DNA of 26,540 nt, taken from IMG/VR virus record IMGVR_UViG_3300012667_000160, positions 1-26,540 of that record; one strand, 5' to 3'. Below, piece by piece: positions 5,051 through 20,011 of the stretch. Source of the stretch: a virus (taxonomy: Duplodnaviria; Caudoviricetes). The notes under the pieces are model-generated. The model did not search any database and was not told the DNA's origin. It worked only from the letters and a program-made list of their open reading frames with translations. Numbering within the stretch: position 1 is the stretch's first letter; each line of letters starts with the position of its first letter. Both the position numbers and the translations under genes were made by a program.

Positions 5051-8000
5051 ATTTACCCGATTGTCTTGCTATGAACTGTTGAATGAATGGATACTCTTGA
5101 GTTTCCCACGATGGTTTAGCGATACGCTCTTCTCCAGTCATACGACGTCTGTCAGTTACGTTTCTAGCTTCAGTTTCACCAGCTAGGCGTTTATACATCT
5201 CGTGCATATTAGTGTGCTTCTGCAATGCTTTTGGGTCACCTGACTGCAAATCGGTTATGTCTTTATTGAGCTTTGCCATTTCATCAATAGCTGATTGAAC
5301 CTTTTGAGGGTGAGCCATAAGGTCTAACAACTCGCGTTGCTCTTTAGAAACTTTGTAATAAGTTGCCCCAAATAGTGAGTTAGCAACTTCCTCTCTGGTT
5401 TTTGACATTTGGCTCATGGTATCGTTATGGGCAGCTTTCAAAGCATCTATATCCCCTTGTGCCCTACCCATATTAACGTCCCAATAAGCCTTAAAAGCCG
5501 CATCGTTATTAGTCCCTAAACTTTGAAGGTTATTAAATTCTGGTGTATCTCGGTATTTATCTAACTCCGCAAGTAGGTTACTTTTACTAGCTAGTTTATC
5601 AGATAGCTTACCCATAGTTTCCTTAGCCATTTCAAGCTTAGTATCGTGAGGTATAGCTTCCATTACAGTGTTAGCGTTTCCGCCTTGTGCCCAGTTTTCT
5701 TTACCTTGAATTTCATGCTGTGCTTCATGCAGTAGCGTACCTAGTGGGTCTTGTACGTAAGGTGTTAAACCTATACCTTTATCTCCGCGCCACCCTTGCA
5801 ATCCTTTACCGTAATCCATAAAACCTTCACGTACAGTAAACGGCACCTCAGCAAGATCAGGGTATGCTTTATAAAGCTCAGGATGCTCAAGCACGTCACC
5901 TAGTTTGTAGTTACCTCTTGTTGGACCAAATGTCTTAGACTCAAGCATCTCGCTCATAGGCAACTTCATTCGGGCATTAGCATCACTAATTTCGTACCGC
6001 CAGCCTTCATCAGGGTTTTTAAACCACCCAGTTGCTTTAAGTATTTCTTCTGGCGACTTACCTGCTGTCTCCATAGCTTGAGCTGTTTCGTGTGCACCTA
6101 AATCTGCTGTACTGGACTTAAGCCCTGCAAACATACCTAAGGTGCCTTTGCCTGTCATCGGGCTAAATGGCATTGCACCTGTATTGGCGAGACCTGCTAT
6201 ATCAAGACCTGCTTGAGCTTGTTCGTCGGGGGTAAACTCTTCATAAGGGTTACTTGAGGCTATACGCATTTTCTCTTGCAACCAATCACCAGCACGGGCA
6301 GTAGCTTCTTGGGGATGCATTAAACTAGAAATGATTGTAGAATCCTTTGGTCCAAAATGCTGAGCCTTAATCTTATCTATAAGTCCACCCTTCGCCATGC
6401 CTTTACCCATCACACTCGCGTATAGCTTCTCAGCCTGTTGTGCTGTAGCGGTACGTTCTCTTTTAGCTTCCTCAATACGGCGAGTCATCTCAGCACTGCT
6501 GATATTGCTATTCTGAAGCATATGTATCTTTTTCATAATGTCAGATTCGTGTTTAGCGTATCTGTCCATCTCGGTTGCAAGTTGTGCTAGCTTGATATTG
6601 TCTGGGTCAGCCTTGAAATTTTTAAATTCTTCTTGCCCTGCCTCGCCACGCATACCTAGTTGGTTATAGAGCTTACGCGCTTGGTCTGCTTTCTCTTTAT
6701 GGGCATACATATCCTCAACAGATTGACTCGCTAAGCGAGTGCCAAACGTACCTTGCGCTCCAAGTCCTGGAGTCTGTGTCCAGTGTCTATCAGGTTTTTT
6801 CACATTGTCAGCAAGACCTACAGTATCAAGTATGCCATCAGATGCCCACAACGCGACGTTACCTAGCTCACCCAAATAACCTTTAAATAGATAGTCGAAT
6901 TTAGTAGGTGATACGTCGAGCGCTTTACCTACAGCTTTACCTGTTTTTGATGCGGTGTATTGCCCTTGTGCCCACGCAGGTAGCCCTTGGTCTGCCTTAG
7001 ATACGATGTCCTCACCCGTATAGAACGATGTACCTGAAGCAAGTTCAAGAGGCGTTTTAGCGATCTGTGGGACAGGTACACCACCGGTGTAACCAATCTG
7101 TCCAGGAATCATGGTGAGCATCTGGTCTTTAGCAATCTTCCATATCTCTTGTCCATCTTTTGTGCCTAGCGAATAGTCCACCATCAAGGCAGGTATCCAA
7201 TAGAGGAACGTCATATCGGGAGGTAGGTCAAGCCCAAACAGCGGGTTATCTTTATCACCTGTAGGCACAACTACTCGGCTGTACTTGAAGCTGTTTTTTG
7301 CTTCTTCATAGTCGGGGTCACCTGACATATAGAGCGCATGAAGCCCCGAGAGCATGCCGATGGTGTAGACCTTATTTAAAAACTGCCGACGGTACGCGGG
7401 TCTATCCTCAACCTTAACGTGACCCATCGTTATATTTCTTCGCATCAATTCAAGCGCGTTAATACCAGCACCTAAGAACGGAATAAGTTGACGACCTGTA
7501 CGCTGTGCATCTGAGTTACCACTAACACTAAAGTTAATGGCTTCACGGGCTTTCATAAGGGCATAACCTTCTGCCTTTTCAGGTGCCATTCCTTTCTTAA
7601 CACCCCTGTCGTAAGCCTTCTGATATACCGCGCAACGTGTCGCACCATCCACTAGAATGTGCATAAACTCGGAGCTGTTACGTAGTTTACTTTTGAACTG
7701 GTCAAGTCCACTTTTACTAACCGTGCGTGTGCCTATTTCCTTATAAAGCATACGTGAATCTCTAGGGTCAATCGTTGGGTCTACGTGGCTGATAGCCCCT
7801 GCATCCATTAGCTTATTTAGAATCTTTCTATCACCACGCAAAATCTTAGTAATCTCATACATCGTGTGCGCAGGTGTAATCCACCCAATATCACTGGTCA
7901 TCGTCGCGCCAATAGGGTCAATAAATAACTGGCGTTTCCAAAAGTTAGGAGTGTTAGTTACCGCAGTACGCAGAACCTGTGCCGCGCCGCGAGAGGCGAG

Positions 8001-10835
8001 CATAATAGGGTTCACGCTTTGGCTTAGAATCTCCATAACGGGATAGTCTGTAGGGTCATGTAGTTCGTAAAACTCACGTTTACCGTTCTTTAAAAACCCA
8101 AAGTTACCCTGCTTCTCTTTAAGATTAGTTCGCCCAACAAACGATGCCTTACCTACTTTTTGAAGCTGCTCTGCTGTCAGCATCTTGTGGTGGTTTCTAG
8201 CACCGCCCATATAGGAGCGTATCATTTCATTAGCGATGTTTTCCATTGGGTTAATATCATGGTCTGACTTGGTACGCTCTCTAAACGAGCGCGTTGCTGT
8301 ATTGCCAATGGTTATCTTTTTACCTGAAGCGCCAAGCATATCTGTTGCTTCGTCACGTAGCGTGTAGTTAGGTACGTAAAGGTCTTGGTCTTTGAAGAAG
8401 TTGTACATGCCCTCATCAATAGTCCCAGTATCTTTAAGGTAATCAACGCGCATTTTGTTTACTTCTTTGAGCATATTCAACGCGTCTTGGTACACAGGTT
8501 TGTTCTTGAGAATCGTGTCAACATCTCGTACTTTCTTAGCAAACCCTTCAGGGTCTTTAGACACGCGCAGACTTACATTTTCTGGATTGACCTTCTGCAT
8601 ACGCTCTTGGTCTTTAGTCCATAGAATCTCATGGAGAATATCCTGCCCATCTTTCTCGCTTTTCACATGGTCAAGCATATTTTTAACAGAAGCGTTTTTA
8701 ACTGTACCATCATGCAATGTAACAGGTGATCTAACTACTTCTGATTGACCGTCAGGCATGAGCTTCATACCACCTTCCGAAAGCACACGGGGTAGTTGAG
8801 TTCCCATTTTATCCATAGCATGACCAAGCCAAAAAGCACTTAACTCATTGCCCACATAATCCCCATACTGTTCGTTAATTTTAGTGAGTCCAAGCCATTT
8901 ATCCACTTGGTTTTTGCCAAAATTATGGAACGTGTTTTTAACCGCGTCAGTAAACGATAGCTTACCAGCAGGGTCACGCACGACAGTGCTTGGGTTACTA
9001 AGTAAATCTGACTCAGCGGTTTTAACTGACTCTGCGCCTGCTTTTGCGCCTTCCTGAAGCCTGCTTGACATAAGCGGAGATCTAGGTACTTCTTGTGCTT
9101 CTGCCTTAGCGCGAAGTGACTCAGGTGCTAGAGATGGTTTAACCTCGGGTTGAGTTTGTGTTGTTTCGCCAAGAGCTTCATCAAAAGCATTATTTACAGC
9201 ATCGACTTTCTCTGCCGTTCTGGTGGCTTCAGGTTTAGGTTTAAATTGATTTATTATGTCGTCAACCGCACTTACTTTATCTTCAGCAATACTACCTTTC
9301 TCACCAGCAGTTTCTTTAAGTCCTGCTAGTACCCTTGTAGCATTAGCTAAACCTTCTTCAGAAGTGAAGTCCAAATCTTTAAGTGTGCTGTACGCAGCAT
9401 GGTTTTTACCAAGTCCTAGCTGGTCACGGATTTGTTCTGGTGTAAGAAATGATGGCGCCTCTGCGGTTGGTTGCCCTTCGACAACGGGTTTCTCTCCTGG
9501 AGCGTAGGGTTTATATTCGCCATTTTTATTTGGGTGGACTACACCTTCCTGTCGAGCAATTGCCCAGATAACCTTATTTCGTACAGCGGGGTCGTCTAAA
9601 TCAATCTTGTCGTTAACACTATCAAGCCCTAAATGCTCAGCAATATTTTTAGCATAAACCTCTGGGTTATTATGGTCTTTAGCAGGTGCATAACGATTAG
9701 TTAATTCAAGAGGTGTATCAATCTGGTGTAAATGTTTATATGCTTTTAATAAGTCATTAATACCTGTAACGCTTTCTTCTAGTGAGTCATAACTTCTAAA
9801 CCCATCACCGGACTTATTACGCACGTTCCACAAGTTGTAAGACTTAGGCATCTTGCTTAAATCAAAATTACGCGCGAGTGAATCCGTATCATACACAACC
9901 CCATAGTCTGTCTGCCCTTCTACTGGTTGTTGCTTACCTTTAACCGTAGGCACTGGGATATTGTCGGGTGTGGGTTCTCCAGCAGGGGGTTGTTCTGTAG
10001 GACTAGCTGGTTTATTTATGTGACTTAATGCAGCGTGCCCCACGCCAAATAATGGGGCGACAGTTAATACATTTTTACCTGTTTCAAGCATCTCCTCTTT
10101 ATTCATTAGAGGTTTATCTGCCGCGCTACGTGCGATGTCTTCTGAGGCTATTGCCGCTGGTGTAGCGACAGCCACGTTGGATAACGTGTTTTTAGCCGCG
10201 TTCTCAAGAAAGCTAGCTCCCGCTTTACCCGCAAGGTATTTAGGGATAAGACCTGCTGGAGCACCAAGTGTGTTTATTGCGGCAATAGGAGCAGCACCTG
10301 TTAAAGCAGCTTCATTACTCCCACCGAGTTCGTTAATATGTCCAGCACCTGCAAGATACTCGCCTGCGCCAGCCGCTCCAATAACTAAAGGATTACCCGT
10401 AGCACCCGCTGCTACAACAGGAAGAACACGCCCAATAGTTTCACCAGCAGGTTCTGTAATGTTTTTTCTAGCTTTCGCTAAATACTCAGGGATAAGCCCA
10501 TTCTTAGATGCAGCGGCTACGTCTTCCTCAGTGGTTTTCTCTGAGGCTTCTTGTGCTTTCTTTGCAGTTTCTTCACTTTTAGCCTTTAGAGATTCAGCCG
10601 TTTCAGGAAAACCTGTAGACTCCGCAACAACACCCGCACCTCGCTCTAGCTGTGACAGACCAGATTGTAATCCTGTTTTAACCGCAGGTATAAACCCAGT
10701 CTTTTCTTCATGTTGAGCGTCCTGCTCCATAAGGTGCTGAACGTATCTAAAAGCATCATCGTCCGTTGCGCTGTCAGGCACCTCGATGTTATATACCTTT
10801 TTATTAGGTGCTTCTATGCTGAGATTTTTAGCCAT
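5049..10835 (-). CDS. Giant internal virion/ejection polyvalent protein (lysozyme-like domain, LPD38-like region, LPD23-like domain with HExxH)
   Basis: AAGGAG ribosome-binding site; last gene of the late operon. Motifs: TNRYAPAKDHNNPEVYAKNIA (PM2 P5-like/lysozyme-like), AREAINFSVSG...LIPFLGA (LPD38-like region), TGWFKNPDEGWRYEISD, LEHPELYKAYPDL, LLHEAQH and YKRLAGETEARNV (LPD23-like). Confidence 0.8.
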   Translation of the reverse strand: MAKNLSIEAPNKKVYNIEVPDSATDDDAFRYVQHLMEQDAQHEEKTGFIPAVKTGLQSGLSQLERGAGVVAESTGFPETAESLKAKSEETAKKAQEASEKTTEEDVAAASKNGLIPEYLAKARKNITEPAGETIGRVLPVVAAGATGNPLVIGAAGAGEYLAGAGHINELGGSNEAALTGAAPIAAINTLGAPAGLIPKYLAGKAGASFLENAAKNTLSNVAVATPAAIASEDIARSAADKPLMNKEEMLETGKNVLTVAPLFGVGHAALSHINKPASPTEQPPAGEPTPDNIPVPTVKGKQQPVEGQTDYGVVYDTDSLARNFDLSKMPKSYNLWNVRNKSGDGFRSYDSLEESVTGINDLLKAYKHLHQIDTPLELTNRYAPAKDHNNPEVYAKNIAEHLGLDSVNDKIDLDDPAVRNKVIWAIARQEGVVHPNKNGEYKPYAPGEKPVVEGQPTAEAPSFLTPEQIRDQLGLGKNHAAYSTLKDLDFTSEEGLANATRVLAGLKETAGEKGSIAEDKVSAVDDIINQFKPKPEATRTAEKVDAVNNAFDEALGETTQTQPEVKPSLAPESLRAKAEAQEVPRSPLMSSRLQEGAKAGAESVKTAESDLLSNPSTVVRDPAGKLSFTDAVKNTFHNFGKNQVDKWLGLTKINEQYGDYVGNELSAFWLGHAMDKMGTQLPRVLSEGGMKLMPDGQSEVVRSPVTLHDGTVKNASVKNMLDHVKSEKDGQDILHEILWTKDQERMQKVNPENVSLRVSKDPEGFAKKVRDVDTILKNKPVYQDALNMLKEVNKMRVDYLKDTGTIDEGMYNFFKDQDLYVPNYTLRDEATDMLGASGKKITIGNTATRSFRERTKSDHDINPMENIANEMIRSYMGGARNHHKMLTAEQLQKVGKASFVGRTNLKEKQGNFGFLKNGKREFYELHDPTDYPVMEILSQSVNPIMLASRGAAQVLRTAVTNTPNFWKRQLFIDPIGATMTSDIGWITPAHTMYEITKILRGDRKILNKLMDAGAISHVDPTIDPRDSRMLYKEIGTRTVSKSGLDQFKSKLRNSSEFMHILVDGATRCAVYQKAYDRGVKKGMAPEKAEGYALMKAREAINFSVSGNSDAQRTGRQLIPFLGAGINALELMRRNITMGHVKVEDRPAYRRQFLNKVYTIGMLSGLHALYMSGDPDYEEAKNSFKYSRVVVPTGDKDNPLFGLDLPPDMTFLYWIPALMVDYSLGTKDGQEIWKIAKDQMLTMIPGQIGYTGGVPVPQIAKTPLELASGTSFYTGEDIVSKADQGLPAWAQGQYTASKTGKAVGKALDVSPTKFDYLFKGYLGELGNVALWASDGILDTVGLADNVKKPDRHWTQTPGLGAQGTFGTRLASQSVEDMYAHKEKADQARKLYNQLGMRGEAGQEEFKNFKADPDNIKLAQLATEMDRYAKHESDIMKKIHMLQNSNISSAEMTRRIEEAKRERTATAQQAEKLYASVMGKGMAKGGLIDKIKAQHFGPKDSTIISSLMHPQEATARAGDWLQEKMRIASSNPYEEFTPDEQAQAGLDIAGLANTGAMPFSPMTGKGTLGMFAGLKSSTADLGAHETAQAMETAGKSPEEILKATGWFKNPDEGWRYEISDANARMKLPMSEMLESKTFGPTRGNYKLGDVLEHPELYKAYPDLAEVPFTVREGFMDYGKGLQGWRGDKGIGLTPYVQDPLGTLLHEAQHEIQGKENWAQGGNANTVMEAIPHDTKLEMAKETMGKLSDKLASKSNLLAELDKYRDTPEFNNLQSLGTNNDAAFKAYWDVNMGRAQGDIDALKAAHNDTMSQMSKTREEVANSLFGATYYKVSKEQRELLDLMAHPQKVQSAIDEMAKLNKDITDLQSGDPKALQKHTNMHEMYKRLAGETEARNVTDRRRMTGEERIAKPSWETQEYPFIQQFIARQSGK

Positions 10836-10847
10836 GACTACTCCTTA

Positions 10848-13478
10848 TTATCGTTTGATATAACCTTGTTGTGCCCATTCCTCGGTTGTTTGGGGGGTTT
10901 GGCTACCGGCATTTGGCACAACAGTAGTAGGTATTTTCAGGGCGATACCTAAAGAATTTAGGTCAGCAAAAGCAGCATTAAAATCTGACGTAGCTTTAAT
11001 ATACCGCGGGTCAGATGGTTGCACCATTCCGTTTGTAAGCGATGTTAAAACGTCTTTAGCTGTTTTTGCTTTATCTGCGGCTAAGTTAACTTTACCTTGT
11101 AGGTTAGGGTCAGAACTTGCTTTATTGTACAGGTCCGCAATTTGCGCATCGAGGTGCTCCATATTTTTAAGCGCCATCTGTTTGTTTATGCCGAGCTGTT
11201 GATAGTCGATTGCGTTTTTCATCGCGTTGTTAGCCGCAGTGTCTCTATGAGCTACAGCATTATTAGCCACACTTTGCGCATATACGTCTGTTTGTTTCTG
11301 TGCTGAGATAGCGTCGAGGACGTTGTTGAGAGAATCGCCTTTTAGCTTTTTGAGGGCTAGCATGGACATTGTATTGTCCTGTGATTTCTTAGCTATCGCG
11401 GCATCCGACTCGTTAGCCATTTTGAGACCGCCCATAATACCAGCACCAGCAATAGCCCCATAACCTGGTCTAAATACACGATCTCCAACGCCTTCGTAAG
11501 AGCCTGCTTTGCTGAGCGCCGCGCCAACCCCGCCTAATATAGCGTTAAACGTACCGTCTTTTCTTTCACGAGCAAGGTCATATTCGTTCTGTGAAATACG
11601 TTTAGCGAGGTCACTATAATCTACATCCGAGTCTTTTAGTTTGCTATATAGTGAGTCTAAGATACTGCCTTGACCCATACCTGTATCACTTGATTTGCTT
11701 ACCGCTTGGTCAGCTTGAAAAAGTGCCGCCGATCTAGCAACCGCATCACCAACAGGATGCCCTTCAGTAGTATTAGTAGTCGGTCCTTGATTAAATGCCT
11801 CATCTCTAACCTGCACATTTTCCTTAGTAGCAGGCGCTTTATTAGCGCTTTTTGAATTTACTATAACTCCGTCGGGTCTTTTTACAACACCTTGTTGTGG
11901 TGTTTGAGTTGAAACTGGTGGCGCTACTTGGGTTGGAGCTGGTGGCGCTACTTGGGTTGGAGCTTGGGAGGTTGTATCGCCTGTTTCCACATTAGGTTGA
12001 GCTGAATTCGCGTCTCCACCCCATAACCCTTTAAGCCTATCTGTTACACGCTGTATATCATTTGGCTTTAAATTAGCCAAGCTTTCATACTCGTTTGCGC
12101 TTGTCGCGCTAATAGGTGAGTTAGGATTAAATGCTTTTTCGCTAGGTACATTAAAATTTACACCGCTTAGAATGTCAGGCAGTTCACCAGAAGCGAATGT
12201 GTCTGGGGCTTTATTACCAGTAATTGCTTGGTATGCTAGAGGAAATGGATTCCCAACTAAAGTTTTACTGGCCCCATAAACATCCATAGGTACAGCCGCT
12301 TCGCTTAATAGCTCACCCGCGTGTGTTCCTAAGCTTCCTAACCCTTTTTTTATAGCCCCTAACCCTTTCTCTACCATTCCAGGTGCACTTTTATATGGTG
12401 CCTCCCCTGCTTTTGGTTTTAGCCAATCATCAGCAGGTGCTTTAGTAGCTTCCATTCTAGCCGCGTTTTCCGCGCTAGTGCGAGCCATTGATTCGTTCAT
12501 ACCCGCAGTTGGGTTGGGTGTTTTAGGGATATATTCTTTATTAGCTCTTATGGCTTCTGCCATAGTTTCTGCCATAGGTGCTGTTGTTTTTGGTACAGGC
12601 GTTTCAGGAATAACGCCCTGATTAGTTGCTTGACCTAAATGCATCTTACGCGGTATGTCAGTAGCTCTTAAATTAGCTGCATTTTGAGCTTCTTGCTCCA
12701 TTAAGCGCTTAACCAATGGGTGAGTACCACGTTCTAGTTTTGACAACACCCCTCTATTAGCTGCATCACCTACGTGCATTTTTCGCACCATTTCAGTGGC
12801 TCTTAGTCTAGCTGCATTTTCTGCATCTTGGGCTTCTAGTATTCTTGGGTCAAGTCCACTGCTGTTAAGGTTAGGGTCGTAACCAAATAAAGACCCGCCC
12901 TCAGCAAAACCTCGGCTAAACACCTTTCCCGAGAATAAGTCCGCGTAGTCTTGCATAGCGTTACCAATATTAGCTTTACCCTGAACCATACCGACAATCG
13001 AGTTATCAAGCAGTGACTGAAGCATCCCGTGTTTCTTTTCTTGGGCGTTGGGGTCTTGTGAGTTAGGTGGTGTATAAGTAGGTCTTTGCCCTTGCATTTG
13101 AGGTGATTGATTAGGCATCATAATGCCGCGATACGCGCCCGTGCCTGGTTGCATAGAAGGCTGTGTTAGTCCACCATCCGCATAGCCTTGAGACGAGGAC
13201 ATAAAATTAGCAGGTATTTGACCTGAGCCAATAAGCTGTGCAAGCATCTGGGATTTATATAGGTCAGCGTTTTGTCTTTCACCTTCTTGCTCCTGCGCTG
13301 CCATAAGTTGCTGCTGGATGTTACCCGCTACGGTGCCTTGGGGGGCTTGACCTTGGGGTTGTCTCATTTTATTACGCTCTAGCATTTCTGACTGTGCAAT
13401 AAGTTTTGCCCAAGGGGAGTTGTTAGGGCTTTGTTGGACCTGATTTAACTGTTGGTCTTGTAAATATTTAATGCTCAT
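10848..13478 (-). CDS. Putative internal virion/ejection protein (P22 gp20-like position)
   Basis: 876-aa ORF that is Gln/Pro/Ala-rich and low in complexity. It has a Gly-rich hydrophobic segment (ILGGVGAAL...GAIAGAGIMGGL) and a helical C-terminus. The assignment rests mainly on synteny. Confidence 0.6.
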   Translation of the reverse strand: MSIKYLQDQQLNQVQQSPNNSPWAKLIAQSEMLERNKMRQPQGQAPQGTVAGNIQQQLMAAQEQEGERQNADLYKSQMLAQLIGSGQIPANFMSSSQGYADGGLTQPSMQPGTGAYRGIMMPNQSPQMQGQRPTYTPPNSQDPNAQEKKHGMLQSLLDNSIVGMVQGKANIGNAMQDYADLFSGKVFSRGFAEGGSLFGYDPNLNSSGLDPRILEAQDAENAARLRATEMVRKMHVGDAANRGVLSKLERGTHPLVKRLMEQEAQNAANLRATDIPRKMHLGQATNQGVIPETPVPKTTAPMAETMAEAIRANKEYIPKTPNPTAGMNESMARTSAENAARMEATKAPADDWLKPKAGEAPYKSAPGMVEKGLGAIKKGLGSLGTHAGELLSEAAVPMDVYGASKTLVGNPFPLAYQAITGNKAPDTFASGELPDILSGVNFNVPSEKAFNPNSPISATSANEYESLANLKPNDIQRVTDRLKGLWGGDANSAQPNVETGDTTSQAPTQVAPPAPTQVAPPVSTQTPQQGVVKRPDGVIVNSKSANKAPATKENVQVRDEAFNQGPTTNTTEGHPVGDAVARSAALFQADQAVSKSSDTGMGQGSILDSLYSKLKDSDVDYSDLAKRISQNEYDLARERKDGTFNAILGGVGAALSKAGSYEGVGDRVFRPGYGAIAGAGIMGGLKMANESDAAIAKKSQDNTMSMLALKKLKGDSLNNVLDAISAQKQTDVYAQSVANNAVAHRDTAANNAMKNAIDYQQLGINKQMALKNMEHLDAQIADLYNKASSDPNLQGKVNLAADKAKTAKDVLTSLTNGMVQPSDPRYIKATSDFNAAFADLNSLGIALKIPTTVVPNAGSQTPQTTEEWAQQGYIKR
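11917..11964. repeat. Exact 24-bp tandem duplication encoding APTQVAPP twice
   Basis: ggtggcgctacttgggttggagct occurs twice back to back. Confidence 0.9.
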
Positions 13479-13488
13479 TAATTACCCC

Positions 13489-15420
13489 TTATGCCGATAC
13501 TTTAACTTGTGTGTTGCTGTTGTTGCCGCTACCTACACCTGCTCCCGCAACTAGGTTTTGGAACTTAACTAGATCTACATTCCCTATCTCATTAAGCACT
13601 TTCATTAACGCATCGTATTGTGCTTGTTGGTCAGCTCTTGCACCTGCATCTGTACTGTTTAACGCGGCTCCTGCATTACCCATAGCAGTCTGATAAGCTG
13701 TTTCTAATGCACCTAGGTTCTGTACGTTATTTACACCTTGGTTAAGCGCGTTTAATTGATTAGTAAACGCTTGGAACTTATTAGCTTGGTTGTACTGCCC
13801 GGCAGAAATATCACCTGTAGCAGCCGCTTGTAGGGCTTGTTGGTTCGCGGTATATGCCGCTTGTTTAGCAGCTCTATCCGCAGCGAATTGAGCGACCGCA
13901 TCAGTGTAGGCGTTTTGGTAACCTTTAGTAGTGATGTCATTACGAGACTGATTATAGTTTCTTTCCCCTTCCGCCTCAACAACACCTTGACGATACCCAC
14001 CAAATGCACCTGATTGTGTAGCCGCTGTGTTTTCTCTTAACCTTTCTATACCTCGTTGTCGCTCCGCTTCACGCAAAGCAATATCGACCACACCTTGAGT
14101 ATAGGGACTCATATAAGTGTCCATTGCTGCCTTATTCCACGTGTCGGGCGTAAACTTATCGGGTGTGTTATAGGAGTTATAAATTTGTTTTGGTGTTACA
14201 TCTGACCCTAATCTAAATGCACTACCCGCACCACCAAGTGTTAGCGCTTGCCCTAGTAAATAAGGACTGCCCATATTCGTTGAGGTTACCGTCGGTGTAA
14301 CATTCGCTGGTGTTAGATTAGCATCCGTTATGGCTTTTTGCAGTTCTGTATCTTTAGCAGCTTGATCTGTCAATACTTTCTCGGCATCTGTTTTCTCGGC
14401 ATCTGTATCAGCTACATTTACCTTATCTTTAAGCGCATCCAGTCCCGCTCCTGTATCAGCTACATCTACCTTATCTTTAAGCGCATCCAGTCCTGTACCA
14501 GCTACATTTACCTTAGATTGGTTATTCGCATCTATAAAACTATCCATTGCGGCAGTATCTGTGTAATCACCTTGATACCCTGCATTAACTGCTTTATCTT
14601 CTAACTGCTGTTGACTGCTAGGTGCATATGTGTAAGTTACGGCTGGATTTACCTTAGTGTCGTATGGGTTTAATCCCGTAGCGTCCATAGTGTCGTATGG
14701 GTTTAATGCTTGGGCATTTGTTTTACTAGCAATCGTATTTAAATCTCGTAACCTGTTTAATTCAGCGGGGGTAATTTCTCCAGAATCTATATCTGCACTT
14801 GTCCAGTTGGTGCCAGTTAGCTGTGCATCTGTTTTTGGGGTAGGTGCAGGTGGCTCTGCTGTCCACCCCGTAGCGTCCATAGTGGTGTATGGGTTTAATG
14901 ATTGGGCATTAGGATTAGCCACTGCGGGTTGGTATGGTTCGCCCCAATCATTAGTAGGGACAAATGGAGCTTGTGGCTTATCCGTAACCGTTACTTGGTC
15001 ATAAGTTGGCGAGCTAGGTGAGGCTGCATAAGCTAAGTTTGGGTTATCAAACGCATAAGTATTGTTATAGCCTGTAGGCACCTGATCGTTAGTCATAGCA
15101 AAAGGTACTGGACCATATGACTGGTCAGACGTAGCACTAGGAGGACCTACAACAGAGCCAAGGGTTAGCCCACCATCATCGAATCGCCGCACACTAGTTA
15201 TCCCCCCCTCAGAGAACCTATTAGCCATCTTATGCGCCATGTTTTGGGCAGCGTACCAATCAGAGGTTCTACCAGCAGTTAACGGTCCTTTATATGTCGG
15301 ACCTTTATAGGTGTCTGCCCATTTGTCAAAATATCCCATCGACTTTTTTAGAGCCGCCTGACGGGTTGGGTCGAGCATTGTGGTCTGTGTAGTGCTTGAT
15401 GGTACTGATGAACCGCCCAT
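13489..15420 (-). CDS. Putative DNA transfer/ejection protein (P22 gp7-like position), 643 aa
   Basis: The likely start is MGGSSVPSSTTQTT at 15420, after AGAGGA. The C-terminal block YMSPYTQGVVD...GAFGGYRQGVVEAE is typical of podoviral ejection proteins. Confidence 0.7.
   Translation of the reverse strand: MGGSSVPSSTTQTTMLDPTRQAALKKSMGYFDKWADTYKGPTYKGPLTAGRTSDWYAAQNMAHKMANRFSEGGITSVRRFDDGGLTLGSVVGPPSATSDQSYGPVPFAMTNDQVPTGYNNTYAFDNPNLAYAASPSSPTYDQVTVTDKPQAPFVPTNDWGEPYQPAVANPNAQSLNPYTTMDATGWTAEPPAPTPKTDAQLTGTNWTSADIDSGEITPAELNRLRDLNTIASKTNAQALNPYDTMDATGLNPYDTKVNPAVTYTYAPSSQQQLEDKAVNAGYQGDYTDTAAMDSFIDANNQSKVNVAGTGLDALKDKVDVADTGAGLDALKDKVNVADTDAEKTDAEKVLTDQAAKDTELQKAITDANLTPANVTPTVTSTNMGSPYLLGQALTLGGAGSAFRLGSDVTPKQIYNSYNTPDKFTPDTWNKAAMDTYMSPYTQGVVDIALREAERQRGIERLRENTAATQSGAFGGYRQGVVEAEGERNYNQSRNDITTKGYQNAYTDAVAQFAADRAAKQAAYTANQQALQAAATGDISAGQYNQANKFQAFTNQLNALNQGVNNVQNLGALETAYQTAMGNAGAALNSTDAGARADQQAQYDALMKVLNEIGNVDLVKFQNLVAGAGVGSGNNSNTQVKVSA
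14377..14515. repeat. Nested in-frame tandem repeats (15-bp unit x2; about 48-bp unit x2.5)
   Basis: tttctcggcatctgt occurs twice (14377-14406). ctgtatcagctacat(t/c)taccttatctttaagcgcatccagtcc occurs at 14403 and 14451, with a partial copy at 14494. Confidence 0.9.
14655..14910. repeat. Dispersed in-frame direct repeats (NAQxLNPYxTMDATG)
   Basis: 44-bp copies at 14675-14718 and 14867-14910 differ at 3 positions. A further 20-bp copy lies at 14655-14674. Confidence 0.9.
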
Positions 15421-15422
15421 AA

Positions 15423-15824
15423 TTAAATCCTCTTTTCGTAAATGGTTTCGCCTTCTCTCCACCCAGGAATTTTATCTATGGCTCTATGCCAGCCTTTACG
15501 GGAGGAAGTAAATGTTATTTTGCTTGCACCAAACTCTCTGGCTATGGCGTCAACGTCTTGATGATACTTAACTAGCGCATCACCTTCTGTACTATAGGCA
15601 GCCCATACGAATAACGAAACCTCATGTGTCAAATCGTCTGTAAGCAGTTTGAATACGATAACCCCGTCTGGAGTCCTGTAGACTCTGGCTTGCCCTAATA
15701 CAGCTGCCATAAAAATATCTTCAGGAATCCAGCCTTTGGTATTCGTTTTAATTATGAGACATTCTAAAGCATTACGGATAAAATCCCAAGAATCTCTAAT
15801 GTTTTCACAGTAGATAAGTTGCAT
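15423..15824 (-). CDS. GNAT-like virion morphogenesis protein (P22 gp14/T7 gp13-like position)
   Basis: 133 aa with LFVWAAYS and AREFGASKITFTSSRKGW. It lies immediately before the first ejection-type gene. Confidence 0.6.
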   Translation of the reverse strand: MQLIYCENIRDSWDFIRNALECLIIKTNTKGWIPEDIFMAAVLGQARVYRTPDGVIVFKLLTDDLTHEVSLFVWAAYSTEGDALVKYHQDVDAIAREFGASKITFTSSRKGWHRAIDKIPGWREGETIYEKRI

Positions 15825-15825
15825 A

Positions 15826-17337
15826 CTACGCGGGTAGGACTTTGCTTGGGTCTACAGGGTTTGCCTGTTGTATATGTCCGTAAGCTTGCTGACGCACTCG
15901 ATCAAGCATATCGTAAAGTGCTTGGGCACCCGCTTTGGTTGAACCAGACCCTAATGCGGATACCACATCAGCGGGGATTACAAACTCAGAATCAGCTAAA
16001 CGCACAGGCTCTTGACTCTGAGCGCCTTCAATCAAACCAGCAATACCGTCACTCTGCCCGTCACCTACACCATGCAACAACCCTTCATCACCACCGCCAA
16101 CATCACCACCTTCAGCGTAGCCATAACCGACTTGTCCACCGTCAGCATACCCAATAACTTCATGGTGAATAGGCTGTGTGGATTGCAGAGGTTGAGCTTG
16201 TGGAATCATGCTCTGTGGGTAGAAGTTCTGCATAGGCTGCTGGTTAATATAGCCAGTTGGAATAGCACCTAAACCCTGAACATCACGAATGGTACCGCCA
16301 GCAGCAAAGCTTTTTCTTCTATTAGCAATATCGGTTAGCCCTTTGGGGAGTTCACTGGGCATAATCCCCGCTTTTTTGTATTGCCCAACAATTTCATCTG
16401 CTTGTTTTGCACTCGCTTGCTCGTTTAACCCTTGTTGTTTATATTGGTCTTCAAGCCCTGCTGCGCCTACTTGCGCGGCTAGCATACCCTGATGTTGCAT
16501 AGGGTTCGTAATAATGTCTTTTAATCCAGCAAAGCTTTGTTCAAAAGGGTTTAGGGATGCTGCTGTTGCTGTTGAAGCGCCTGGCGCTGCTCCTGGGATC
16601 ATTGACTCACCTTGTGCTGTGAGTCCTACACTTGATGAATTAAGAGCATCTGTAGGAGCTAGGTGCTCTGCAAAACTAGACGGGGTAATTGCATTCTGCG
16701 CTTGAGAAGTTAGAGTAGAACCAACCTGATTATTTAAACCTGCGATGCCGCCTTGTAAGCTGTTCTCAGTGGCTGATTTTGCCCCTTCTTCGAGAGCTGA
16801 TTTACCTACCTCGCTAAAGCCTTCTGCTGCACTATTTAGAGTTGGTGTAGCTACATTAGTTATTGTACCTTCTAAACCTTTTTCCGCTACATTACCCACT
16901 GCCGTTTCACCTACACCAGCAGCTCCACCTAGGCCTCCAAGCGCACCAGACCCAGCACCAAATGCTGCTGCCATACCAATATCTTGATCGCCTTTAATAG
17001 CGGCTTTACCTGCATTAAGCCCAGCACCAGTAGCCGCGCCAGCAAGAGCACCAAGACCTAAAGCACCCGCACCACCAGCCGTCACACCCAAAAGCGGAGC
17101 AGCGGCGGCAGCCGCGCCACCAGTAAGAGCAGCAGCGACACCAATACCAAGACCTGCTAAGATGTCAGTTAAGTCCATCGCTTCAGTCATACCTGTTACT
17201 GGGTTTTTTGAGAGAGGGCGATTGTTTACTGCATGGTTAAGCGCGTTAAGCCCAGCCACTTCTGCCTTATTCATGTGGACTAGTGTGTCATCACCTCCAC
17301 GACCATATTGTGCTAATTTATTGGCAACGCTGTGCAT
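15826..17337 (-). CDS. Putative internal virion protein with a glycine-zipper segment and conserved terminal domains
   Basis: GGAG ribosome-binding site. N-terminal GRGGDDTLVHMNKAEV...NPVTGMTEA, a long Gly/Ala hydrophobic stretch, and C-terminal GDGQSDGI...RLADSEFVIPADVVSALGSGS. Confidence 0.65.
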   Translation of the reverse strand: MHSVANKLAQYGRGGDDTLVHMNKAEVAGLNALNHAVNNRPLSKNPVTGMTEAMDLTDILAGLGIGVAAALTGGAAAAAAPLLGVTAGGAGALGLGALAGAATGAGLNAGKAAIKGDQDIGMAAAFGAGSGALGGLGGAAGVGETAVGNVAEKGLEGTITNVATPTLNSAAEGFSEVGKSALEEGAKSATENSLQGGIAGLNNQVGSTLTSQAQNAITPSSFAEHLAPTDALNSSSVGLTAQGESMIPGAAPGASTATAASLNPFEQSFAGLKDIITNPMQHQGMLAAQVGAAGLEDQYKQQGLNEQASAKQADEIVGQYKKAGIMPSELPKGLTDIANRRKSFAAGGTIRDVQGLGAIPTGYINQQPMQNFYPQSMIPQAQPLQSTQPIHHEVIGYADGGQVGYGYAEGGDVGGGDEGLLHGVGDGQSDGIAGLIEGAQSQEPVRLADSEFVIPADVVSALGSGSTKAGAQALYDMLDRVRQQAYGHIQQANPVDPSKVLPA

Positions 17338-17576: not shown

Positions 17577-19448
17577 TCATTTTCTCCCATCAGCAACAAT
17601 TTCGAGTCGCGGGATACCCAGCGACCACTGTGTACCTGTTGAATCACTAGCAATTCTAAATGCTATCTGACGTCCACGTAGGCGTAGCCATTTTTGATCT
17701 GTATATTCTTCTACAGGGATTGTTGTGGTTCTTGCAATAGGCTCATCTGTCTCTTGGTTATATGGACCGCCTGGAAAGTCTCTAGCGTAGAGCGTCATAA
17801 CAACCGCAGGTGTTTCATCTGTAGACCCAGAGAACGTAATGTCAGGTATAAGGCGACGAATAAACATAAACTGATATCCATCATCAAGGTCAAAATCCGC
17901 TGACTGAATATAGGCAGCTATAGGTAGTGGAGTGCCTGTTGCGTTATCTTCAAGACCATTTTCTTGGTAGATTAAGTTTCCATCACTAGCTGCAATAGGG
18001 TAGGTTCTATCAGGGCAGTCAATCCAAGCAGTTCTGTTTATAGTGCCGTAGTACCAAATGCGTTCTTGGTAGTTGTAGACAGCATAGCGGTCAGGGGATT
18101 CTGCTTCACTAGAGCAGTAGAACCACCAAATTTCGTTAAACTCACCCACTGACCCAACAAATGTTTGAGCCTGTTGTGCATAATTAAAATCGTTAAAAAT
18201 ATACTGGCGTAGCGAGCATGGGAGTGTTTCAACGGTACCGCCATAGGTAAAGAACTTTTTATGTCCCATCCAGTAGGTAATGTTGTTAACCGAGATAGCT
18301 GCAAAGGGTGAAGCAATCGTGATATTAGTTGAGCGTGGTTGAAAACTAAACGTAAATGGTGTACCTACATACTGCGCCCCATATAATGCGCTGTTCGTAA
18401 AGATAAGTGTTTCTTGGCGTGTTTTAATAGCTGTAACAATAGCATCACCATAAGTAAGTCTATACCCGCCTGCTGAAGTGGCTATGCTTGGTGTCCAAAG
18501 CGCGGGGTTGTTCTGATCTGCCCAACGCACGAGCATAGGAGTTTTTGTGCTTTCTCCTATTGCGTTACATCCAAGTGCCATAACGTGATTTTCGTCTGTG
18601 GTAATAATACCTGTAACAACTGTAGGGCAATCCGCAGCACCACTTAAAGAGCTAAGTTTAACGGCATTAGCCGCAGGAATACCTGAACCCGCAACGCTCG
18701 TGCTTATTTTCCAATAATATATCTCACCGTTAGTGGGAGCAATAACTAAATCTTGACCGTAATTGTCCTGCGTCCAGTACCCTAAAGGTTGAACCACACC
18801 GCCTGAAGTAGCACTGCTACCCCAAGTACCTCGACTCCACGTACCCGCACCCCAACCAAGCCCTGTTACGTTAATAGGCAGACCAGCAGAGGCTTCAAAA
18901 CTTAGCGCGATTACTACCCCACCGTCGGTAGTAGTAGCTGTAGCAGAGGTAGTTACTTGAAAGGTAAACGTACTCGCGTCTAAGACTGTTATTTGGTGAG
19001 TTGTGTTAATTTCAGCCGCAGGTACACCACTAGATGTAATTACCGCACCTGAGATTGAAATATAGTCGTTTGTAGACGCACCGTGATTAGCATAAGTTAT
19101 GCTCACCGTCGTTAGCCCAGACACAAAATTAAGTGGGTTAGCTGGTGTAAGGGGTGAAACTACAAGGCGGTAGGGTGTGATGTTGTATAGGGTTCCGCTA
19201 AATTCTATAAAGAAACGGATGTTTGTGCCTACGCCTGTGTAGTTATTACCTGCAATAGAAGACCAATTTCTTAGTGTTCTGCATACATCTGTATAACTAT
19301 TAAGGCTAAACTTTTGCCACCCACCAATGTTTTCAGGAAACCCAGAGCGAAATCTAACTTTATCACAGGCGTACCATCCACCTTCGTTAGCATAGTTAGT
19401 CCCTTCTCGGGATACCCCAGGGCGAAAGGTTATTGATTTAAGTGGCAT
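17577..19448 (-). CDS. Tail nozzle/packaged-DNA stabilization protein (P22 gp10/T7 gp12-like beta-propeller)
   Basis: 623 aa, beta-rich. Motifs GWYACDKVRFRSGFPENIGGW, VRWADQ, FNEIWWFY and C-terminal RLRGRQIAFRI...DGRK. Confidence 0.75.
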   Translation of the reverse strand: MPLKSITFRPGVSREGTNYANEGGWYACDKVRFRSGFPENIGGWQKFSLNSYTDVCRTLRNWSSIAGNNYTGVGTNIRFFIEFSGTLYNITPYRLVVSPLTPANPLNFVSGLTTVSITYANHGASTNDYISISGAVITSSGVPAAEINTTHQITVLDASTFTFQVTTSATATTTDGGVVIALSFEASAGLPINVTGLGWGAGTWSRGTWGSSATSGGVVQPLGYWTQDNYGQDLVIAPTNGEIYYWKISTSVAGSGIPAANAVKLSSLSGAADCPTVVTGIITTDENHVMALGCNAIGESTKTPMLVRWADQNNPALWTPSIATSAGGYRLTYGDAIVTAIKTRQETLIFTNSALYGAQYVGTPFTFSFQPRSTNITIASPFAAISVNNITYWMGHKKFFTYGGTVETLPCSLRQYIFNDFNYAQQAQTFVGSVGEFNEIWWFYCSSEAESPDRYAVYNYQERIWYYGTINRTAWIDCPDRTYPIAASDGNLIYQENGLEDNATGTPLPIAAYIQSADFDLDDGYQFMFIRRLIPDITFSGSTDETPAVVMTLYARDFPGGPYNQETDEPIARTTTIPVEEYTDQKWLRLRGRQIAFRIASDSTGTQWSLGIPRLEIVADGRK

Positions 19449-19464: not shown

Positions 19465-19818
19465 TTATCCGTTCCAGCGTGCGATTTTACCATCACGTAC
19501 ATCAATATGGGTAAAAGATTTGTAGCGTCCAAGACCTCGGCAATCACTGTCAAAATGTTTCATGAGATAGTTTTGCACTTCGCGTGGTTCGATGTCTTTT
19601 ACTTTAATGTCGGCTGCATTACCTAAGACGTGTTGACTATGCTTTGCACCACCCACTTTCGTGTTGTGTGCTTCACATCTTCTACCGCTCATAATGGTGA
19701 TTGGCTTACCAAACGACTCACGGATGCGGTTAAGTAGCTCTACGAGCTTTGGGTTTACGTCTTTTTCACCGCACCCGCAGTGACACGCGAATTCTTCTGG
19801 TTTGAAGTATTTGCTCAT
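19465..19818 (-). CDS. Endolysin, peptidase M15A family
   Basis: The likely start is MSKYFKPEEF at 19818. Motifs CHCGCG, SGRRCEAHN, SQHVLGNAAD and FTHIDVR (Zn ligands H, D, H). Confidence 0.9.
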   Translation of the reverse strand: MSKYFKPEEFACHCGCGEKDVNPKLVELLNRIRESFGKPITIMSGRRCEAHNTKVGGAKHSQHVLGNAADIKVKDIEPREVQNYLMKHFDSDCRGLGRYKSFTHIDVRDGKIARWNG

Positions 19819-19819
19819 A

Positions 19820-20011
19820 TTACTTACCTTCTGAAACAAACAGTCCAATCATACCAAACACGACACTAGCGGCAGTTAAGCTGTCATGCACAACAGGCGT
19901 TGCATCAATATTCACACCCGCCATCGTTGCGAGTGCTGCCACACTTGCGTGAGTTGAAGGTTCTTTTAATCTTGCGTTTAAATAGTTCCACGCTTTAAGT
20001 AATTTATTCAT
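19820..20011 (-). CDS. Putative holin
   Basis: 63 aa with two hydrophobic segments, a basic N-terminus and an RLKEPST motif. It abuts the endolysin gene. Confidence 0.7.
   Translation of the reverse strand: MNKLLKAWNYLNARLKEPSTHASVAALATMAGVNIDATPVVHDSLTAASVVFGMIGLFVSEGK

Follow-up and report, generated by a model that had tools for sequence, protein, structure and literature searches.

How do podoviruses choose and load the proteins that they inject? The answer is known only in outline, and a five-residue peptide that recurs in one virus record raises the question of whether such proteins share an address, a cleavage site, or both. The record is IMG/VR IMGVR_UViG_3300012667_000160 (Caudoviricetes), and the window analyzed comprises its positions 1 to 26,540, a 26.5-kb stretch that is ~42% complete. 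Four proteins, A (503 amino acids, aa), B (643 aa from an ATG start, 657 from a GTG), C (876 aa), and D (1928 aa), come after the tail gene in the usual podovirus slot for ejection proteins. From this position, from a weak match of A to the PHROG internal virion protein family (E 1e-4), and from the LPD38 and LPD23 domains of D, we infer that all four are packaged and ejected. The preliminary description of the window had seen the peptide [FYM][ASD]xGG in each of them and read it as a reusable signal, or tag, for processing or packaging. Its eight copies and a weaker LSEGG are confirmed in coordinates, minus-strand location, frame, residues at −1 and +2, and differing codons (Table 1; copies are named by protein and residue, as in B80). 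Comparison across related phages reveals a real motif that is selected and reusable and that marks some of the cargo joints (D1480, B80, and partly C191); as to mechanism, the evidence leans to binding over cutting.

Enrichment of the motif across protein families

The 3,964 residues of A–D hold eight matches to [FYM][ASD]xGG against a mean of 0.68 in 5,000 shuffles (maximum 5), or of 1.08 (maximum 7) when the shuffles keep GG pairs, and the other 19 open reading frames (ORFs) of the window hold one match, with 1.2–1.9 expected. The pattern was derived from these same proteins, and therefore the fair test is one made out of sample. The test set consists of 80 related loci chosen through the C-terminal domain of protein A (the A domain) and not through the motif. 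The strict form of the test requires a hydrophobic residue at +2, uses GG-preserving shuffles, and removes identical sequences while keeping similar ones. Under these rules, family A has 127 matches in 61/76 proteins (7.2 expected; ~18-fold) and family C has 63 in 42/46 (1.4 expected; ~45-fold), followed by family B with 18 matches in 12/72 proteins (5.0 expected). Family D has no match in 45 proteins against 3.9 expected, and other ORFs are without enrichment, with 18 matches in 15 of 800 (26.4 expected). A relaxed form, in which the second position is loosened and the sequences are dereplicated, detects the motif in 61/61 A, 37/37 C, 33/57 B, and 2/24 D proteins; in family B, the 58 matches do not rise above the shuffles (mean 42, maximum 59).

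The enrichment over shuffles that the preliminary description proposed to look for in relatives is strong in A and C, moderate in B, and absent from other ORFs. Its claim of a tag shared by all four internal proteins holds in this window but not as a family rule, as family D nearly always lacks the motif. Given that family D shows no enrichment, LSEGG of protein D is probably not a tag. Chance occurrence in glycine-rich proteins can draw on the fact that the pattern was chosen after the data were seen, and on the relaxed result for family B, but the out-of-sample excess, with none in the 800 other ORFs, contradicts it for A and C and leaves it scarcely credible. A logo of 289 sites reads Y/F/M, mostly A, any residue, G, G, any residue, and V/A/L. 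Among close relatives, the motif residues stay constant while third codon positions vary; on this sequence evidence, the motif is under selection at the peptide level. Spacings of up to 20 residues between copies (n = 111) are exactly 8 in 55 cases and 11 in 20. CRP-901 (L012), L271, and L300, whose ejection regions have neither a detectable A domain nor tags, serve as natural negative controls.

Head-module proteins and look-alikes

The window is without a head module of its own, which falls outside the contig, and head genes were surveyed in the corresponding module of the closest relative and in 80 loci anchored on the portal gene. In two families of small basic proteins (50–258 aa, isoelectric point 10.0–11.7), every member carries the motif (10/10 and 7/7), with 1–6 copies each; these proteins look like DNA-condensing passengers. 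The motif is absent from the portal (0/80), scaffold (0/67), and capsid (0/42) proteins. Copies also occur at the very end of a chain: six proteins have the motif 2–7 residues before the C-terminus, and in the 868-aa last protein of the HTVC023P ejection region it lies 7 residues before the end. In the closest relative, a head-module protein of 563 aa (L096:3391-5082) has a degenerate copy, KAAGG, close to its C-terminus and is possibly cargo as well.

The saturation of the small basic proteins bears on a role at the ejection step, in which the motif would form a short beta-turn that binds DNA, the membrane, or a host-envelope factor, or would order unfolded cargo through the portal and tail. 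Such a role would suit a peptide common to podovirus ejection proteins and siphovirus tape-measure proteins, which both pass the tail into the envelope and share no head-assembly step. It fits poorly with a motif that fills head-module proteins resembling DNA-condensing passengers, and is judged very unlikely.

The consensus has a look-alike in TerL, where a conserved C-terminal FRQGG-hydrophobic string is present in 63 of 67 proteins (TerL of G001, L096:13732-15243, and 66 relatives). This string is rejected as a tag because DSL-LC04 (FRAGN) and HTVC023P (YRQGS) lose the second glycine yet tag their ejection proteins. The consensus by itself is thus no proof of a tag. In DSL-LC04, the gene after TerL (L011:1-822) encodes an 825-aa protein, annotated as PcfJ-like, whose N-terminal part has three motifs.

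The C-terminal domain of protein A

Protein A is laid out as an optional ~50-aa N-terminal module, a Gly/Ala-rich hydrophobic stretch, a variable middle, the motifs, and the A domain. The domain occurs in 8,057 protein clusters (E up to 0.001) and belongs to no Pfam or NCBIfam family. Of 346 A-type domains, 321 have the motif at most 30 residues before them, and the signature GxG...SDxI...GE[FY]V follows it within a few residues. The invariant residues of the domain are G, D, E, and G, and no His, Cys, or Ser is conserved. That the motif opens a widespread domain related to tape-measure proteins, and that it saturates the small basic head-module proteins, had both been missed in the preliminary description.

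AlphaFold gave two models of the A domain, which have a predicted local distance difference test (pLDDT) of 67.5 and 70.6 and are confident for the helical half only, and the motif region is below 50 in both. Foldseek finds no PDB match for the first model, and VIA-align gives the second a best Z of 2.4 and no PDB match, while a BFVD search returns only uncharacterized proteins of uncultured phages at E <0.001. With models of this kind, the fold-search nulls point to neither a new nor a different fold.

Thirteen proteins have half an A domain (P0084, P0085, P0089, P0104, P0121, P0226, P0237, P0240, P0274, P0307, L039, L042, and L079); in these, the second half follows almost immediately on the motif, and another residue stands in for the invariant Glu. 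The L-A-D-G-E-F-V core of the A domain itself looks like the tag. Comparison does not support the idea that the N-terminal module of A duplicates the C-terminal domain. By pattern, a ~50-aa module occupies the leader position in 33/61 members of family A. The N-termini of A and B (L016–L095) have interchangeable ~20-aa leaders that end at a Gly run, and many A and B orthologues are leaderless and start M-x-x-G-G or M-G-G.

Relationship to siphovirus tape-measure proteins

A compact version of the A domain matches 141 phage records, and 41 of the 60 matches listed are annotated tape-measure genes (E 1e-3 to 0.1); the Douge tape-measure chain (PDB 8ZDO) matches at E 4.7e-5 and has two copies. 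The distance of the motif from the C-terminus is 119 residues in 9NA, 121 in lambda, and 140 in JBD88a. In lambda gpH, FATGG (733) and YATGG (778) precede a Gly-rich module of the GE[FY]V type, which aligns weakly to the A domain (score 25, P 7.5e-4; column shuffles of other pairs reach 22). The modules of 9NA, JBD88a, and Douge are visibly closer to the A domain than that of lambda. These alignments relate the A domain to the module that ends siphovirus tape-measure proteins (TIGR01541 region); searches of protein A and its domain against TIGR01541 and PF09718 give no match, and a profile search of genome contigs for tape-measure modules yields one locus. No such motif-plus-module protein family is named in podoviruses.

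The relationship is relevant to an old problem, as lambda gpH is converted to gpH* and gpHC by the loss of ~14 kDa from a glycine-rich region, with both site and catalyst given as unknown in the available text of PMC12617516. A cut at FATGG would give 12.2–12.7 kDa, ~1.5 kDa short of the reported size, and residues 733–737 are a candidate cleavage site. The accessible parts of PMC1796659, PMC12724387, and PMC11447400 contain no mapped tape-measure cut at the motif, and the portion of bioRxiv 10.64898/2026.09.03.749273 that could be searched has 0 term matches for one. gpH is a tail-lumen ruler protein of a siphovirus that is known to be cut, with the motif only a candidate site, whereas protein A belongs to a podovirus. 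The tape-measure link offers a precise and cheap test of where gpH is cleaved, a site described as unknown in a 2025 paper.

Cassette joints and the fusion in protein D

The motifs had been described as falling where composition or domain content changes, with a comparison to alignment breakpoints suggested as a check. Breakpoints coincide with B80, D1480, and partly C191, three of the eight copies; the other five (A344, A397, A407, B69, and C99) lie in conserved sequence. In protein B, a variable cassette (~aa 85–425) is inserted after the tandem motifs, and across FDDGG the identity to four close relatives drops from 0.90 to 0.33, which ranks second of 578 positions. The tandem of the window separates an N-terminal segment from a core, and the two are contiguous in short tag-less relatives (N-terminal match weak, E 0.13). 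In protein C, the variable part starts at FAEGG in comparison with L005 (identity 0.93 upstream, 0.23 downstream) and weakly so with L002, but there is no break against L003, which shares the downstream part. The downstream ends of the cassettes (B ~425, C ~600) have no motif.

Family B has a further feature at its N-terminus, where the first GG follows 12–53 residues, mostly ~20, in 36/57 proteins, and where 17/57 proteins start within 6 residues of a GG. From its ATG start, B of the window is leaderless, and the leader feature is separate from the eight internal motifs. Six long B variants (L094, L070, L027, L089, L044, and L056) have a tandem of the family C type after the core, and may represent B–C-like fusions joined at the motif.

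Protein D is a polyvalent protein with LPD38 (aa 1173–1357, E 5e-22) and LPD23 (aa 1568–1623, E 2e-16) domains, the latter in an appended module. The 1480-aa orthologue of L002 ends two residues before MAKGG, and three other fused proteins have the motif at the same LPD23/zincin joint. Fourteen near-full-length stand-alone LPD23/zincin modules, many on short contigs, begin without the motif; P0123 starts at the joint and may be a contig-end fragment. These alignments indicate that the D motif of the window is a feature of the fusion joint and not a family trait. The HEAQH stretch of D lies only inside the appended module, and the D zincin is rejected as a general protease, since this module is optional and cannot serve relatives without it. 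In many LPD23/zincin modules (P0127–P0204), the HExxH helix is followed directly by an aromatic-x-x-GG string (in the window WAQGG, D ~aa 1712–1730), which could be a structural element or the source from which the tag arose.

The joints could be the whole explanation if the motif is a flexible linker and recombination footprint, a fragment of the A-domain opening copied along with cassettes that neither binds nor is cut. In B, C, and D, it marks where swapped cassettes start, on the upstream side, and this fits such an origin, as does the structural rise of aromatic-x-x-GG look-alikes in TerL and after the HExxH helix. However, the residues are kept while third codon positions vary, every dereplicated member of A and C retains the motif, five of the eight window copies lie off breakpoints, and a plain linker needs no aromatic, Ala, or +2 hydrophobic positions. 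A pure footprint is therefore improbable.

Binding or cleavage

The chance that the motif is a docking tag, left uncut and used to load cargo into the head or to co-assemble it there, is put at about even. In this reading, the aromatic/Met-Ala-x-Gly-Gly-x-hydrophobic peptide would adopt a small turn or hairpin that docks onto a repeated site; candidate partners are the A-type domain, the scaffold, and the portal. Extra copies would add avidity, and binding would bring the predicted internal proteins into the head during its assembly or keep them together there. As a side effect, a short conserved peptide would provide an in-frame joint at which cargo cassettes swap or fuse, and B80, C191, and D1480 would then need no cut to account for them.

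The terminal and tandem copies, together with the lack of a conserved protease, lean to binding. A cut at copies that lie 2–7 residues from the C-terminus would free almost nothing. Docking is also favored by the fixed spacings of 8 and 11 residues, the saturated head-module families, the coupling of the motif to the start of the A domain, and the place of the B tandem between two segments that adjoin in tag-less relatives; the motif, moreover, keeps to families A and C, part of B, and the small basic head-module proteins, and its position along the chain can shift. Pfam detects no prohead protease family in 98 proteins, of which 44 come from G004 and 43 from G005, both complete relatives, and 11 from G001, the closest head module; the scan left out most ORFs below ~120 aa, some G005 tail proteins, and genes split by region cuts, and many proteins have no family. 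One M28 peptidase is present, in one genome only. In crAss001 gp45, the modelled portal-bound segment 425–552 begins with A-F-G-G in the available part of PMC10172136, and this copy would thus be uncut at or after GG in mature virions.

Several points weigh against a docking tag. Hairpin geometry, partner, and avidity are all inferred, the hairpin from the sequence, as the motif region is of such low pLDDT. Even under the relaxed test, 24/57 B proteins are without the motif. Tags on other ejection proteins accompany the A domain in 20/26 loci and occur in 4/9 without it, a trend only (p 0.10; 5 kb of sequence past the tail gene on its downstream side was available in 35 of the 84 loci). In nearly all relatives, protein D lacks the motif and is presumably packaged all the same; its gain falls exactly on the fusion joint, where a tag would be redundant and a cut site useful. 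The crAss segment, as it starts exactly at Ala in the available text, also fits a cut just before Ala, and lambda gpH is reported to be cut ~14 kDa from its end while the motif lies 121 residues from the end.

A protease site is possible but doubtful. The cut would most likely fall just after the aromatic residue or Met and leave x-x-Gly-Gly, with a host peptidase, or the A-type domain working on its own chain and on neighboring proteins, splitting packaged polyproteins into channel parts and cargo; such a site could serve as a tag as well, like the targeting sequence of T4. The motif at the joint of D and three other fusions, set beside its absence from the starts of 14 stand-alone modules, speaks for a cut site. 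The tape-measure motif and module, 119–140 residues from the C-terminus, lie near the ~14 kDa lost by gpH, and the first GG of family B is preceded by optional leaders. In P22, the host OpdA trims gp7 to a K-G-G start, removing a leader that is largely dispensable (PMC8402733, available part), and two modelled pieces of crAss gp45 lie ~420 Å apart with three AxGG-type copies between them (PMC10172136). However, no conserved protease emerges from the 98 proteins scanned, the zincin stretch is confined to the optional D module, the A domain lacks a conserved His, Cys, or Ser, and terminal and fixed-spacing tandem copies make poor sense as cut sites. The downstream cassette ends without motif, the shortfall of the predicted gpH fragment, and the absence of detectable homology between family B and P22 gp7, whose site is spaced differently, also speak against cleavage.

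Likeness to known systems

By analogy, the motif would work most like the capsid targeting sequence of T4, which the phage protease removes, but it fails the positional feature of that signal. Both are short peptides common to otherwise unrelated internal proteins, and in T4 the peptide is sufficient for packaging, ten residues of IpIII directing the process (PMC8402733, available part). The T4 signal is single and N-terminal, whereas the copies described here lie at aa 69–1480, are internal, tandem, or C-terminal, and are based on Gly-Gly. The P22 ejection proteins are recruited via the scaffold, and P22 gp7, itself a podovirus ejection protein, loses a dispensable 20-aa leader by a cut two residues before Gly-Gly (PMC8402733); family B has similar optional leaders. 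The gp7 cut is a single N-terminal event with a different spacing, Y-P-E before the cut and K-G-G after it. A profile of 30 short B proteins detects no homology to gp7 (E 7), and P22 gp16 and gp20 have no such motif.

The crAss001 cargo protein C1 (gp45, PF25725) is likewise packaged and ejected, with AxGG recurring along its chain (PMC10172136, available part), and in relatives AxGG motifs bracket its portal-bound domain. The main text of PMC10172136 mentions neither the motif nor cleavage. An atlas lead from the A domain to C1 (score 0.82) is unconfirmed: hhalign gives 0.5%, within shuffles, a PF25725 search gave no candidate, and the fold searches with the A-domain models (pLDDT 67–71) list no crAss chain. 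Protein D, with its LPD38 and LPD23, belongs to the polyvalent proteins, for which processing into units driven by an MPTase has been proposed (PMC5512222). No junction motif appears in the available part of that paper ('glycine' occurs 0 times in the main text), and the zincin of D is optional.

A literature search found no description of the motif, with most subscription journals outside its reach, and the motif is apparently undescribed. The contribution here consists of the family-wise out-of-sample test, the recognition of the D copy as a fusion joint, the count of motif–domain coupling, and the caution raised by the TerL look-alike. A broader and rather unlikely proposal is that motif and domain form an ancient common addressing and processing device for injected proteins, in which the ~80-aa domain would read the Gly-Gly peptide on itself and its partners, gather cargo in podovirus and crassvirus heads, and mark or make the tape-measure cut, including that of lambda gpH at ~733. 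If so, grafting five residues onto any protein would load it into these virions. In an abundant phage group, a shared tag of this length would, if real, supply a rule for cargo prediction and a handle for loading reporters.

Phage setting and additional features

The window has replication genes on the plus strand, tail and predicted ejection genes on the minus strand, and a podovirus gene order. Its 623-aa tail protein shares 28–32% identity over 95–100% of its length with those of MinM2, DSL-LC04, CRP-901/902, and HTVC023P/027P; judged by this protein, the window is a fragment of an HTVC023P/MinM2-like podovirus. Approximately 19,000 IMG/VR stretches match the tail-protein patterns.

Table 1. 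Positions of the motif copies and associated features in the window
Feature	Position	Strand	Remark
FAAGG	16294..16308	(-)	protein A aa 344; conserved, no sharp breakpoint
YADGG	16135..16149	(-)	protein A aa 397; first of tandem pair
YAEGG	16105..16119	(-)	protein A aa 407; opens C-terminal domain
FSEGG	15202..15216	(-)	protein B aa 69 (ATG numbering)
FDDGG	15169..15183	(-)	protein B aa 80; sharp identity drop
YADGG	13170..13184	(-)	protein C aa 99; family-wide copy after N-terminal segment
FAEGG	12894..12908	(-)	protein C aa 191; variable cassette start vs L005
MAKGG	6384..6398	(-)	protein D aa 1480; fusion joint
LSEGG	8769..8783	(-)	protein D; probably not a tag
Protein A, 503 aa	15826..17337	(-)	predicted internal/ejection protein
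A domain, ~80 aa (A aa 423-503)	15829..16071	(-)	akin to siphovirus tape-measure C-terminal module
133-aa gene between A and B	15423..15824	(-)	conserved position
Protein B, 643 aa from ATG (657 from GTG)	13489..15462	(-)	predicted ejection protein
Protein C, 876 aa	10848..13478	(-)	predicted ejection protein
Protein D, 1928 aa	5049..10835	(-)	polyvalent protein
Appended D module, aa 1480-1928	5052..6398	(-)	LPD23 and HExxH zincin-like stretch
623-aa tail protein	17577..19448	(-)	places the phage; untagged context

The 133-aa gene keeps its place between A and B in most relatives, and CRP-901 has a gene annotated as GNAT at the matching position; the acetyltransferase label is unconfirmed (profile against CRP-901 gp34, E 0.33). 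In the variable N-terminal part of D, weak glucosaminidase and tape-measure-type matches (aa 331–444) hint at a muralytic domain. An M15 peptidase at 19465-19848 resembles endolysin families. In the closest relative, an opposite-strand ORF (L096:16613-17431) contains approximately eight TPTAT-like repeats.

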